Shown here piece by piece: positions 5,422 through 48,420 of a DNA stretch of 64,000 nt. The translations under genes were made by a program, and so were the position numbers. The DNA comes from Leucoraja erinacea (lineage: Eukaryota), in contig NC_073391.1 in NCBI RefSeq assembly GCF_028641065.1, forward strand, positions 23,994,001 to 24,058,000, written 5' to 3'. The notes under the pieces are model-generated. The model did no database searches, had not been told where the DNA came from, and worked only from the letters and a program-made list of their open reading frames with translations. Each line of letters starts with the position of its first letter. Positions within the stretch are counted from its first letter, which is position 1.

Positions 5422-7100
5422 AAACATTAAAAACTGCACTTGTTTATTCTTTCAACTGTTTTCCTTTTTGATATGGCTTTGATTTAAAGCCACCCAGCAG
5501 CCTCAGTTTTTCAAGAGGCGCCAAGATAAGAATATTATTAGAAAATGTGCCCTGTCATCTTCATATGAAGTCAGTGATGGGTCCTGTACCGACCGGTGGA
5601 TAGAGGTCACACACGTCTTCCACACTGTTGGTTTGATTTATTGCATTTTCACACCATTAACCATGTTTGTAAATATGATTGCGGAAATAAAATTAGATAT
5701 GTTAAATGACCACAGATGTTATTTTCATTTTAGCCACATGCTGATGGCAATTGATTGTGGTTTGAATAACTATCAATATTTAAGGATGTTAAAGTATTAA
5801 TGCAAATGTGTTAACAGAAGAATGAATGTTTTTGAAATATGCAGTAGTGCAACCGGTAAATGTGAAGGGGGAGGAAAGAAAGGCATAAATATTGATGCAT
5901 TTGTTACTGTCCCTGAAGTTTCCAATTATTTTCATTCTGAAGAGGTCATGGAATAATTCTGTAGTGTGCAGTTTGATTCATGGTTACTTGCATGTTACAG
6001 TGGTGCTGAATCAATAATTAAAAATCCATTGTATGTTAATCATATGAACAAAATATACATCTGTTGCGATTTATGATATTCCTGGATTCTGCGTTTACAT
6101 TCTTAGGGAATGCATTAATGTATTTTACTGCTCTCTCGTCATTTTGAATCAGGAGAGCATTTGTAAAAAAATATATTATTTATTGCAATCATCTAAGGGA
6201 AAATTGTACATAACTACATTTTCTTCACAGTTCCATTGCACATTTCCTTTTTGGTGGTAAGTTGACCAACAACTAACTTTGATAAGCATTGATTGGCATG
6301 ATAGCAAAGAAATGAAGGACACAGGGTAGAAGAAGCAAGTGAATCGGTGGTCTGTTTTTCAATTCCTAAGTGGTTTAGATAACTGATATGATTACATTAC
6401 AGTTTCACTAGGCAATAAATTCTACAGAATTGTTGTATTTTCTTTCAGGTAGGAAATAATTCTTTTTTCATACATAAAAATGCAATAATTCTGCAACTGG
6501 AACAATCCATTCTACAAAATATCTGTTCTGATTTTCATATTGCAGGTAAATTTAGCAGAATTATAGAAGTCAATGATCTTGGACTACCCACGCTACATCG
6601 ATAGAAAAGGTTCTTTTCATGTAACATTTGTGTTGAATTGCACTGATCTGTGGGAATTTAGTTCTAACCTGCAATGGAATCACTTTTAAGTCATGGTGTA
6701 TTAAGGACAGATGAAAGCTCCACTGTTTTCACGTCTCATAGGAGTTCTGTGATTTTTTTTTTTTTTACTGATTTATGTCTTGCCACCTAATTCATTAATT
6801 TGTAAATTTGCCGCATCTGTAAATACACATCTGACAGCATCAGTCAGGTGATCGCACAAAGAAGTATTTTACACTGAAATGTTTAGATTTATATCATTAA
6901 GGAACAGCTCACATATGTTCTGGACCAATGTAAAACAATTTTGAAGCTTCAACATAATAAAAAAAATCTCAAATCATTTTTTTTCAACTTTCTTTCCTGT
7001 GTCATGGAGAAATTCTTTACCATGTTTTTTTTCAGATTTGTTTTCAATTGTCTTGGCCCCGGGGATGTTAAAAGACATAAAGCTGAATGTGTCCATGAAA
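5422..7100 (+). other. Probable ATRNL1 3' UTR (end uncertain)
   Basis: AT-rich sequence after the stop codon with no recognisable repeats; AATAAA at 5686, 6414 and 6956. Confidence 0.55.
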
Positions 7101-7659
7101 TGACAAAATAGAAATTGTTGGAGAATGTGGATCAATGTTTTACACTTTGAGGTTTTTTTTAATATTGTACCTTGAACAATGTTACCAAACTCATCTCACA
7201 CATAGCAATTGGACATTGCAAAGAAAATGGATTCTGACCAATATACAGCAACTTGCTTGTTTTCAGGGTAACCCTAGTCGAGGAACAATTCAACAGAAAT
7301 AGTGTAATTATAACCATACCAACAATCTGTTGCACAGATTGAATCTCTTCACGTGGTTTGCAGAGGGGTGGGTGGGTGGGTGGGAGGAAGTGGGGGTAAA
7401 CTCCTCTCAGAAGCTAACATTGAAGGTTTAGTTCAAATGGCGAGGCCAGGCTTCACTGCGGAGAAACTTCAACAAGTGAAGATTATCTAAAATCTACGCT
7501 CCACAAGCAACCGATATAATGCAAAAGTATGATTTTTTAAAAGATTTGGCGTTCACGTTTGCGCCAGACAAGAACATCTGCTGATCAAATACACAAGGAT
7601 CCACACAAGAAGGAAACATCTTGATTGTCCAGAATTCCTGTCACAATTTTTGTTAACAG

Positions 7660-7858
7660 TTTTCATGTTGACATGTAGAGGGCATGTTTAAAGTGAAAGG
7701 AAAAAATTTAATAAGAACCTGAGGGGCAACTTTTTTCATACAGAAGGTTGTAGGTATATGGAATATGCTGCCAGAGGAGGTGGTTGAGGCAGGTACAACA
7801 ACATTTAAAAGACACCTGGACAGGTAAGGAAAGGTTTAGAGGGAGATGGGTCAACTAA
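7660..7858 (+). mobile_element. CR1 LINE 3' fragment
   Basis: Motifs tttaaagtgaaagg, ggcaacttttttcatacaga and ctgccagaggaggtggttgaggcaggtac recur in the other CR1 copies. Confidence 0.7.
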
Positions 7859-7865
7859 AAGCCTA

Positions 7866-8169
7866 AAGGGCCTGTCCCACTTTCCCGAGTTACTCACGAA
7901 TTCTCCCGAGTTGTCCCCTTGATTCAAACTCAGAGAATGTCCGTAGCGAGTCCGTAAGAGGGTGTAGCGAGTCCATAGGAGTCTGTAGATATATCGTAGC
8001 GGCTCGTTATGCCAGCCATAGGTAAGTCCGGACGTTTTTTCCAGCATGTCAAAAAAGTCCATGAGTAAAAAGATAGTCGAGAGGAGGAGTTCGTAGATCA
8101 CAAAAATCTTGATTTTTTTTTAGGCCCTTTCAATTCGGCAGAGGACTCGGGAAAGTGGGACAGGCCCTT
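7866..8169. mobile_element. MITE (PIF/Harbinger-like)
   Basis: TIRs AAGGGCCTGTCCCACTTTCCCGAGT / ACTCGGGAAAGTGGGACAGGCCCTT flanked by TA (TAA/TTA); about 300 bp and non-coding. Confidence 0.8.
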
Positions 8170-8602
8170 TAGGCTCTTCGGCCCAATTTGCCTATGTCGA
8201 CCAAAATGCCCATCTAGGTTAACTGTATGACATTATAATTCTACCTGCAAGAGTATGTGCCTTTGGCATATGGCCATCCCCAATTTTAAAACATTAGTAA
8301 TGCTGTTGTTTCAGACTTCCATCTTTGGCGGTGGGTTGGTAATCTCACATTCCTGTCTCAGTTTCTTTGTTCTTGCACTTTCCAAGTATATATTTCTGAT
8401 ATCCCTTTATCTTTCAGCCCTGTGTTTCTATATTCTATAATGATGCTCTAATTTCACCTGGTTCTCGGTATATTGTTTTACATGTAAAAAATCCTCAAGC
8501 TGCCTCTGTAATCTGGATGCTCTCATTATCCCCTTTTCTCCCAGGCACACTTCTCTACTTTTCCTGTGCATTCTCCATTTCATCATCTCAACTTGATGAC
8601 TA

Positions 8603-8635
8603 GAGGCGTGGGTTCGTATACCACTTCTGACACCA
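8603..8635 (+). pseudogene. 3' 33 nt of tRNA-Leu(CAA) including CCA (extended PBS)
   Basis: GAGGCGTGGGTTCGTATACCACTTCTGACACCA versus the vertebrate tRNA-Leu(CAA) 3' end as I recall it, GAGGCGTGGGTTCGAATCCCACTTCTGACA-CCA: 2 mismatches. Confidence 0.8.
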
Positions 8636-8849
8636 TGTAAACAAGAGAGTCACACGATATATAATCCAAGATCATCTTTAATCGTTACGCAAACTATAGC
8701 AGTACAGCAGATTGTTAGTTGTCAGGGCATCCTGACTGCTTCCAGAACCGAGCAGTAAAGGAAGTGGGTGTAAATATAAATGGTACAGTAAGGTGGGGTT
8801 AGTGATGCTAACCTATTATGATTGGTTGTCATGCATAAACCCATCTACA
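8636..8849 (-). mobile_element. Gypsy-type LTR with a PPT on one side and a tRNA-Leu PBS on the other
   Basis: TGTA...TACA termini. On the minus strand it is preceded by GAAAGAGGAT and followed by TGGTGTCAGAAGTGG. Confidence 0.75.
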
Positions 8850-10614
8850 ATCCTCTTTCATAATGTCTTATGTCTTTCATAATCTTCAATCTGTTTGTGC
8901 AGTGAAGAACCATTTTTCTTTTTTTTAAAGAAAAAGCTTTAAAATATCGCATCTCTGATTCATCATTAGATGAACAACAGGAGATCAAGCAGTTTTAAAG
9001 TAAATGGTATAATTTGGCACTGTTCCGTGAATTATTTTGTGTGTGTACACACTGGAACAGAAGGATCACTGGGCAGATTTGGATGAGTACAAAAGGAAAA
9101 CTGATTTCCACTTGTGATGCAATGTATTAACCTTCCTTCATTTCTGCACATTTGGTTAAATTAAAATATTTTGTAGGGAAGGGGGTGGAAATAACGAGTG
9201 AATAGAATAAACAATAGATAGAACAAAAGCGCAAATTTAGTTAATGCTTCACTGCTATCACCAGCCAAATTTAATGCTGTGCTAAAATCTTTCTCAGACT
9301 AAGAGCTCGATTATGGGTCCAACTGGGACTTAAAAGACATCATGCCAGCTATTGCTTACTTGCTGGTGCTTGCCAAGGGATTTCCAAATGTTATTCCTAA
9401 TGCCTCACTTACTAGAAGCCATTGCTAATTCCCCATTGAATTCAAACTGAACTGTGATGGGATCCTGCTGAGTTGCAAAAGCTACAATATCTATCCAAGA
9501 TATGTCTTGAACTATGGAGTTAATGGGATTTAAATATTTTTTGTTCTGGAAAGGAAGTTCAGCCACATATAATGTCCTTCAGTTAAATGTGATATCTTTA
9601 AGATTGTATTTGACAAACATTATTTGGGGGGGAATCTGTGAAGATATTGAATTAGTGTCTTATTACAACAGTTATTTGCAGAGATGCTGATAATTTTAAC
9701 ATGAAATAATCTTAAATGTAATGTTAATCATATTTAACTTGGAATGCAATGTGCTCCAGGTACATCTTTTTGCAACCGGCTAATGTCTATGGATTACTAA
9801 ACTTAATTTGGTCTATTATTGTTATGGCATTAACCAAATTATGATATCTTAGGAAATCAAAGTTAAAATTATATTTGATCAGTGGGGAAAAATGGTGTAA
9901 TTCATAGTTTATTTATTTCCTTCTTGGCAGATTAGAAAACTCATGAAGTGATTTTGTGAAAATGTGCTGTAATGTACTCTGTGAGCTTCAGAGAAGAGTG
10001 ACCAAATTTATGTTTCCACTGTGTGCAAATGTCAATAACGTTCCCAAAGTGAAATAGCGATCATGCATTATACATTAAAGATCATGCCTCACTGTCATTT
10101 TCATCTGGTGGAGAGAAAAGTATACTAACCAGAACAAAGTAAGTGTGGTTAAGAATCTATCAGATAATTTGGACAGAATTGTTATTCATTTATGCAGTCT
10201 AAACAAAGAATGGAGAATATTCTCCATGCATTATCTAAACCTAAACCTGTTCCATATTTTGTATAATTTAGCAAATTACATTTCCTTTTTGTTTGCTGGT
10301 TATGTTTACTCCACAGATGATCACAGTAAAGATTATATGAAAGCGTTGCTAATGTACAACACTTTCAATGCTTCTGGGAAAATAATTATTTTCTCCATCT
10401 ACAAACTTTATTTCACTCTCCTAATATTATGGAGTTCACCTGATGTGCATTCAAAAGAGGTGGGATTCCGTCTTGGGTCGCACGTATTGTAAACTGCTGA
10501 AACTGGAAGATCTAAGAGTCAAATCTTCTCTTGTTCTCAAGTTATCTAATTGTATTTTTAATGAGATATTCCAGCTGTGCACATTTATACATTCCTGCCT
10601 TTCAAATTCTTCAA

Positions 10615-28332: not shown

Positions 28333-29251
28333 TTGAATTGAATTGAATTGAATTGAATTGAATTTCCTTTATTGTCATTCAGACCTTACGGTCTGAACGA
28401 AATTTCGTGCCTGCAGTCATACATACAATGATACAATAATAACAACAATAAACACAAATTAACTTCCACCACAGTGAGTCCTCCAAACACCTCCTCACTG
28501 TGGTGGAGGCAAAAATCTTAGGGTTGCAGTCTCTCCCTCTGCTCCCTCTGCGCTGAGGCGATTCCCCACCGGGCGATGGTACAAACAGTCCCGCAGCTCA
28601 CCGAACCCCGCGAACAGGCCGGTTGAAACACTGCGGCCCGGGGTGGTTGAAGCCGCCGCACCTCCAGTCCAGCACACGCAGCCGCCGGCCCGCGGCTGAA
28701 CCCAGGACTCTGGACACCGCCGCCAGAACGTCGTCCCAGCCACCGGACCAGATCGCCCTCACGTGAGTACCGTTCCACCCTCAGGCTGGGCCACTCCAGT
28801 GAGAGTGCCGTTCCTCCCTCGGGCTGGGCCACTCCGACGGGAGTGCCGTTCCTCCCTCGGGCTGGGCCACTCCAGCGGGCGTGCCGTTCCTCCCTCAGGC
28901 TGGGCCACTCCGACGGGAGTGCCGTTCCTCCCTCAGGCTGGGCCACTCCAGCCCCTCACCATGCTGCTCTCACGGGAGCACCGTTCCATCCCGGGCTGGG
29001 CCGGGAGCGAGCCCAGGACGAGTCCTGTCAGCTGCCTCCAGAGTCCCGAGGTCGCCGGCTCCGCTAGGCCTCAGTGTAGACGGAGGCAAAGAAGGGGGAT
29101 ACGACAAAAAGGTCGTATTCCCCCGAAGGGAGTGACAGCAGCCCCCGTTTCACCCCCCACCCCCCTCCCCACATAAACACATCCTAAAAACCAAAAACAT
29201 AACTAGACAATAACGAAAAAAAACAATACAAAAAAGTAAAAACTGCAGGCG
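28333..29251 (-). mobile_element. GC-rich non-autonomous retroelement with internal 38-bp tandem repeats
   Basis: (AATTC)n tail, 3' stem-loop TTCAGACC-GTAA-GGTCTGAA, T-rich 5' region; homologous to 47625-48420. Confidence 0.75.
28765..28951. repeat. 38-bp minisatellite, ~5 copies
   Basis: Unit GAGTGCCGTTCCTCCCTCGGGCTGGGCCACTCCGACGG. Confidence 0.9.
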
Positions 29252-47624: not shown

Positions 47625-48420
47625 TAATCTTAGGGCTGCAGTCTCTTCCTTCCTCTTCTCCCTCTGCGCTGAGGCGATACCCCACAGGGCGATGGTACAA
47701 CCAGTCCCGTGGCTCACCGAACCCCGCAAACGGGCCGGCTCAAACACCGCGGCCCGGGGTGGTCGAAGCTGCCGCCCTCCAGTCCAGCGGACGCAGCCGC
47801 TGGCCCGCGGCTGAACCCCGGTCTCAGGTCACCGCCACCAGAACGCCGTCCCAGCCACCGGAGCACTGTTCCAGCCCCGAGCCGGATCGCACTCACGTGA
47901 GTGCCGTTCCTCCCTCGAGCTGGGCCACTCCGACGGGAGCACCGTACCTCCCTCGAGCTGGGCCGCTCCAACGGGAGCGCGGTACCTCCCTCGAGCTGGG
48001 CCTCTCCGATGGGAGCGCCGTACCACCCTCGAGCTGGGCCGCTCCGACGGGAGCGCCATTCCACACTCGAGCTGGGCCGCTCTGACGTGAGCGCCACAGC
48101 CCCTCACGGGAGAGTCTCAGCCCCACGCCAGGCTGCCCTCACGGGAGCGTCACAGCCCCTCACGGGAGCGCCATTCCAGCCCCGAGCCGGACTGCCCTCA
48201 CGGGAGCGAGCTCAGGGCAAGTCCTGACTGGCTCTGCCTCCGGAGCCTCGAGGTCGCCAGCTCCGCCATTAGGCCTCAGCGCAGACGGAGGCAGAGAAGG
48301 GGGATACGACAAAAAAGTCGCATTCCCCCGAAGGGAGAGACAGCAAGCCCCGTTTCAACCCCCCACCCACATAAACACAACCTAAAAACCAAAAACTTAA
48401 CTAGACAAAATGAAAAAAAT
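47625..48420 (-). mobile_element. Second copy of the GC-rich element with 38-bp repeats (tail missing)
   Basis: Aligns with 28515-29220; repeats at 47898-48090. Confidence 0.8.

Follow-up and report, generated by a model that had tools for sequence, protein, structure and literature searches.

An LTR joined to tRNA-Leu sequence in Leucoraja erinacea: a probable plus-strand overshoot product and the genome-wide class to which it belongs

How does a single LTR come to lie against a copy of its primer tRNA? The question is raised by a locus on contig C15 of the 2.19-Gb genome of Leucoraja erinacea, in the window analysed here (the whole stretch of 64,000 nucleotides, NC_073391.1 23,994,001-24,058,000), where, on the minus strand, the complement of tRNA-Leu including CCA directly adjoins an LTR end. 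In reverse transcription, plus-strand strong-stop synthesis normally copies 18 nt of the primer tRNA, halting at m1A58, and read-through of m1A by reverse transcriptase (RT) is error-prone. An earlier reading, made from the letters alone (the sequence-only reading), took the locus for a captured intermediate with a PPT on one side of the LTR and tRNA on the other, in which synthesis had passed into the primer, left a misincorporation mark at position 58, and been integrated without integrase. The features that we distinguish are as follows, with positions counted in the window.

8849-8636, minus strand: LTR, 214 bp, TG...CA, with both ends precise according to family copies flanked by 5-bp duplications of the target site (TSDs)
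8618-8635, minus strand: PBS, 18 nt, the complement of positions 76-59 of tRNA-Leu with CCA; one mismatch at 8620
8617, minus strand: base facing A58 of the tRNA; the element strand has A, not T, which is the commonest misincorporation of the class described below
8602-8616, minus strand: overshoot tract, complementary to the T-arm of the tRNA and to where its variable arm begins, with a mismatch at 8602
8598-8601, no strand: host sequence, found in the empty site, with a match to the tRNA variable loop as well
8602-8849, no strand: the entire insert, 248 bp, replacing 12 host bp without TSD
8850-8859, minus strand: purine tract of host origin, embedded in a more extended purine run of the host and likewise seen in the empty site
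8865-8883, no strand: 19 extra bases (an 11-bp direct repeat plus 8), missing in organism F

The LTR and the CCA-bearing 33-nt complement behind it had been recognized correctly, the former being a member of a repeat family and the latter, together with the T at 8617, agreeing with comparison to host genes. The match to these genes extends over 33 nt to 8603, with mismatches at 8617 (A58) and 8620 (C61), and can be continued to 8598 if a third mismatch, at 8602, is allowed, hence 33-38 nt; the mismatches at 8620, within the PBS, and at 8602 had been overlooked. The tract is colinear with the mature tRNA from CCA to beyond position 58. The comparison covered 18 full tRNA-Leu genes of the host (13 CAA, 5 CAG), from a search that tolerated a single mismatch in the 5' half and that divergent or unassembled genes with other loop bases could escape. 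All 18 have A58 and none has an encoded CCA, and therefore the tract was copied from a mature tRNA and does not reproduce a host gene. No tRNA gene was detected at the locus itself by ARAGORN or by Rfam (Rfam scope 7000-10500). The 33-nt tract is identical for CAA and CAG genes, so the isoacceptors are indistinguishable from it alone, but CAA is indicated in 30 of 31 informative tracts of the class; the assignment to tRNA-Leu(CAA) in the sequence-only reading is thus probably right, though for a reason that lies in the class tracts. Seven tRNA-Leu(CAA) genes clustered on contig C12 (L187-L193) have A, not G, at position 57.

Four of 24 runs of related organisms were aligned to 8215-9300. The insertion junctions are present in three of these four, the insertion being common to organisms A, B, D, and E, and the empty site is represented by one contig from one run (X20, organism F), which spans the locus without the insert. 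In this contig, position 8601 is linked to 8873 through 16 other letters, four of which realign to 8850-8853, since one 11-base sequence occurs at both 8854-8864 and 8873-8883. It follows from this structure that the insert occupies 8602-8849, that it is accompanied by a 12-bp target deletion and, as had been anticipated, by no TSD, and that the purine tract is host DNA rather than the PPT for which it had been taken. The true PPT of the family, found before the 3' LTRs of its copies, is a different, G-rich tract, and purine richness equal to that of 8850-8859 occurs by chance in five of 81 other insertion flanks. As for the 19 bases at 8865-8883, they may have been left by repair, as a scar, or have been deleted in organism F. 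The tRNA-side junction has 3-4 nt of microhomology (8598-8601) and coincides with the commonest stop point of the class. Both flanks of the insert are single-copy at the search sensitivity used, and neither a second LTR nor element DNA was found within the window or over 10 kb past its start. A solo LTR produced by LTR-LTR recombination was rejected, as the PBS/tRNA tract is present and a flanking TSD is absent.

A genome search with the window LTR yielded 1244 candidates, of which 40 were scored, and there are 31 full-length matches at 86-94% identity. The best 30 family loci include many solo LTRs flanked by 5-bp TSDs, a number of 5' LTRs where the leader follows a normal 18-nt PBS, and a number of 3' LTRs preceded by the G-rich PPT, which does not resemble the purine tract of the window; in family copies, the PPT adjoins TG and the PBS adjoins CA with no spacer. 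Four of these 30 loci (L002, L003, L004, L015) also bear a long tRNA tract, and L078 is a fifth such locus. The ordinary copies (L028, L029, L079, L080) have the 18-nt PBS and then the leader, so a 33-nt tract is not the normal state of the family. In four overshoot copies, Pfam identified domains in the pol order RT-RNaseH-IN; these copies belong to sister LTR families that share the PBS, and the LTR family of the window itself is tied to pol solely via blast of the frames of L070. The source clade may be Mag-like Gypsy.

The LTR-tRNA junction described in the sequence-only reading is real, but it is not a one-off: the pattern composed of the PBS and the overshoot has 425 matches in the genome at no more than one mismatch, while the reversed control has none. 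Exact LTR-end/PBS junctions number 885, and 256 of them continue into the tRNA to tract position 31 (29%, a share among surviving copies and not a rate). The detailed sample comprised the first 100 exact matches of the 425, situated on contigs C1-C8, with 600 bases upstream and 5900 downstream. CA directly precedes the tract in 97 of the 100 loci, and the LTR-like sequence upstream has a homologue at another locus in 93, forming 33 clusters at 80%. Tract lengths span 30 to 49, and a junction is shared by only one pair of loci (L117/L118); apart from this duplicated pair, the sampled overshoot junctions are independent. Three loci (L062, L063, L064) have tRNA-Leu 3' tracts with T at position 58, without CCA or an adjoining LTR end, and are probably truncated overshoot copies.

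The mismatches along the tract are concentrated at few positions. Opposite A58, the 100 loci have T in 50 cases, A in 38, G in 7, and C in 5 (non-T in 50/100). When five positions were left free and counted by eye, mismatches were seen in 52/100 loci at position 58 versus 1/100 at both 59 and 55, which is the enrichment expected in the sequence-only reading; the same count gave 7/100 at 57 and 15/100 at 56 (CpG pair), and seven host tRNA genes themselves deviate at position 57. At tract position 36, which corresponds to the variable-loop C encoded in 13 of 13 CAA genes, a mismatch is present in 33 of 46 anchored tracts, compared to 0-4% at positions 30-35 and 37, and also in ten of 11 young copies (those with LTR pairs at least 97% alike). 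Strictly defined tract ends fall just before the variable-loop C in 23/100 loci and at position 49, just before G37, in 17/100. In none of the 18 tracts anchored to position 49 does the tRNA match continue further: the expected base at 50 is found in seven, and later positions look random.

It is established that m1A, m3C, and m1G produce both mismatches and stops of RT (PMC8062790); in zebrafish, m3C at e2/47d has been reported for Leu-CAG and Ser tRNAs only (bioRxiv 2024.01.30.575011). We infer that the three positions likely correspond to m1A58, m3C of the e2/47d type, and m1G37, the prediction being a modified variable-loop C in tRNA-Leu(CAA). In those CAA genes that contain an intron, position 49 also marks the exon boundary, and the same stop could thus result from a tRNA cleaved into halves. 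The possibility that A at position 58 was copied from the leader base after the PBS, which is often A in ordinary copies, was rejected, because the tRNA sequence resumes at position 57, cases with G and C exist, and so does the variable-loop site. Given the class frequencies, misincorporation is a far likelier source of the T at 8617 than later mutation, although a single copy is no proof; read-through into the primer tRNA with misincorporation at m1A58 is strongly supported by the class and not by this copy alone.

More than half of the sampled copies (54/100) have a full 3' LTR within 5.9 kb, with the median length of 2.3 kb. These are internally deleted Gypsy elements, in which the tract runs into pol, followed by the PPT, the 3' LTR, and a 5-bp TSD. 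The TSD is exact in 35 of the 54 and has one mismatch in nine (44/54 in total, the cross-pair null being 3%), the calls being slightly inflated as the LTR start was chosen as the best candidate within 14 nt; the remaining ten have no TSD within one mismatch, and several of them resemble boundary offsets. Thus, most of the two-LTR copies were inserted by integrase rather than by break capture, and the integrase-free insertion suggested in the sequence-only reading does not apply to the class, while for the window copy it is one of two close options. The landing points of the tract are scattered across the pol frame, 48 having been placed (41 sense and seven antisense). Microhomology of at least 3 nt is observed at eight of 28 clean tract-to-pol junctions compared to 1.9% in the null; here, 11 of the 39 donor-mapped junctions were excluded as unclean, and for all 39 the mean is 1.7 versus 0.33. 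A previous count of such microhomologies (13/39) was based on loosely called tract ends and is superseded by the strict one.

Another nine copies of the 100 have only a partial LTR end, five of these with a TSD within one mismatch, and 37 have no 3' LTR within 5.9 kb; of the latter, 26 go on into element DNA, whereas 11 resemble the window copy in not doing so. Roughly one copy in ten, the window copy among them, is joined straight to host DNA. The base before TG is C in 17 of 35 TSD-proven copies, in line with integrase target bias.

Several individual copies deserve a description. The array L168/L167 (C7:19376184-19376552) consists of an LTR, tRNA overshoot, PPT, LTR, second overshoot, and short LTR end, all enclosed by an exact 5-bp TSD, with A opposite A58 in both tracts; it is a true PPT-LTR-tRNA junction and suggests two passes over an unremoved primer. 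Three copies of about 240-260 bp (L015, L105, L107), composed of an LTR, a tRNA tract, the last few LTR bases, and a TSD, are minimal overshoot products, with transfer onto the LTR end itself. L024 (C4:94199690-94199967) is a fold-back, where an LTR end faces, head to head, a PBS and LTR end in inverted orientation. In L005, L011, and L046/L100, 5' LTRs are followed by a PBS of just about 9-12 nt and then by a common, different leader; in L100, an overshoot tract and then a short LTR end precede this short PBS and leader.

These structures could arise from one faulty step. Plus-strand synthesis would pass m1A58, often with a wrong base inserted, and the over-long strand would stall at the variable-loop C or at G37. 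Its tRNA tail would make the 3' end unextendable at the PBS. The tail could then prime by microhomology at a wrong site of the minus strand, yielding deleted two-LTR copies that integrate normally; it could prime on a template of the opposite sense, yielding inverted segments, or at the LTR end itself, as in L015, L105, and L107. If the tail were left unextended, only the left LTR end would be usable by integrase, and this is the case that the window copy fits, because its U3 start is exact and its tRNA end meets host DNA at the stop point that prevails in the class.

We therefore regard the window copy, with reasonable though far from full confidence, as an overshoot of plus-strand strong-stop synthesis that stalled in the variable arm and was joined to the host by integrase at the LTR end and by host repair at the tRNA end. 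The two parts of this reading differ in strength: an overshoot origin, taken alone, is close to certain, whereas one-ended integration has about an even chance of being correct, and we favour it over capture at a break.

In the latter scenario, end joining would have taken up the same overshoot cDNA at a break in the chromosome, with no integrase involved. We consider this possible but rather unlikely. It would account for the missing TSD, the 12-bp target deletion, the 3-4 nt of microhomology at the tRNA end, and the 19-nt duplication nearby, and it agrees with the fact that none of the host-joined copies has the 5' flank repeated after the tract. The empty site also has a 6-nt match to the PPT/LTR junction of the family; however, the observed junction has one additional T, which makes it one base longer than this microhomology predicts, and the same extra T is seen in two relatives. 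None of the other host-joined copies has a PPT-like flank, and the class as a whole was made by integrase. The U3 start is exact in the window copy and in eight of nine assessable copies scored without downstream element DNA, while end joining is expected to trim some of them. Still, this is not diagnostic of integrase, as strong-stop DNA may begin at TG anyway, because the PPT adjoins TG and the PBS adjoins CA without a spacer.

An ordinary deleted two-LTR copy with a TSD might also have lost, by a later deletion, everything from the tRNA tract to 12 bp past the 3' LTR. Two-LTR copies are the commonest outcome (54/100), and the locus is old enough to be present in organisms A, B, D, and E, but the deletion would require one break to coincide exactly with the class's main stop point and the other to lie at most 17 bp from where the 3' LTR ends; neither a second LTR nor any element DNA is left in the window or in the 10 kb beyond it, and three relatives have the same junctions. 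All this makes a later deletion improbable. As for a long tract inherited in a non-autonomous lineage (an extended PBS, Helenus-like) or a tRNA pseudogene beside a solo LTR, deleted copies retaining both LTRs, PBS, and PPT could be remobilised, and tRNA-like sequence is known in non-autonomous LTR elements (PMC10886601), but this explanation is largely refuted and highly improbable, given a single junction-sharing pair among the 100 loci, 33 LTR clusters, tract lengths from 30 to 49, the 18 nt of ordinary family copies, the position of the tRNA-like part of Helenus inside the LTR, and the 97/100 tracts that start directly after CA.

Comparable events are known from several systems. Deleted or tRNA-containing retroviral DNAs resulting from faulty plus-strand transfer were reportedly described by Pulsinelli and Temin in 1991, Colicelli and Goff in 1986, Olsen in 1990, and Dunn in 1992. 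They resemble the class in that deletions begin at the PBS or just past it and the primer tRNA is joined to the LTR; in contrast, those DNAs are reported as single culture clones, while the class seen here is natural, spans the genome, has TSDs, and preserves a modification profile that can be read. One-ended (aberrant) retroviral integration is said to have been studied by Oh, Chang, and Hughes, and by Varadarajan in 2013. It shares with the window copy one exact LTR end and another end repaired by the host with a target deletion, but in our case, proposed from sequence only, the bad end is a tail derived from tRNA. Similarly, Moore and Haber in 1996 and Teng in 1996 are said to have observed capture of Ty1 cDNA at double-strand breaks in yeast. 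A short reverse-transcription intermediate, the lack of a TSD, and microhomology are common to both situations; the differences are that the window copy and most copies like it have an exact U3 end, and that TSDs accompany most of the class.

A parallel to the stops themselves comes from HIV-1. There, overshoot on tRNA-Lys3 reaches positions 55, 54, and 37 (products P3-P5), loss of TRMT6/61A lengthens synthesis past A58, and the product reaching position 37 is called non-functional as a template (PMC13191261). RT in both systems passes m1A58 and halts at later modified bases, the last being at 37, but the HIV-1 products are minor ones observed in vitro or in cells, whereas in the skate hundreds are fixed in the germ line, rescued by transfer to a wrong site. 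Helenus/Ajax TRIMp3 are small LTR elements with tRNA-related sequence, tRNA-Leu PBSs being among those used, and in them the tRNA-like part is inherited inside the LTR (PMC10886601), while here it lies behind the LTR, is antisense and CCA-bearing, and differs from copy to copy. Membership of the window copy in Helenus/TRIMp3 was rejected: it has one LTR, there is no Rfam tRNA match in 7000-10500, and junctions are not shared. A literature search, conducted largely outside subscription papers and Repbase notes, retrieved no published description of the genome-wide overshoot class; thus, overshoot itself is known (HIV in vitro), and its fixation at the genome scale was not found in print.

Taken alone, the locus is a neutral dead fragment, and the interest rests on the class. 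Its natural germ-line insertions show how often RT gets past m1A58, at which point it halts next, and by what route the over-long strand is rescued, and they provide numerous internally deleted LTR elements with a concrete origin. It is fairly probable that failure of the m1A58 stop is a main route of LTR-element decay in this lineage, with overshoot products making up 29% or more of the PBS-bearing copies that survive in Gypsy families primed by tRNA-Leu, and that these copies constitute a datable fossil record of the germ-line primer, with m1A58, m1G37, and variable-loop m3C in tRNA-Leu(CAA). In this way, tRNA modifications could be read and dated from the genome alone, for species and past times from which no RNA is at hand.

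Some other features of the window were noted in passing. Positions 7860-8175 hold a small MITE-like element whose 30-bp terminal inverted repeats (7860-7889, 8146-8175) match perfectly. A tRNA-Glu(CTC) gene is predicted by ARAGORN on the minus strand at 18368-18440, and two repeat copies, at 28533-29163 and 47649-48368, contain a 38-bp tandem array.
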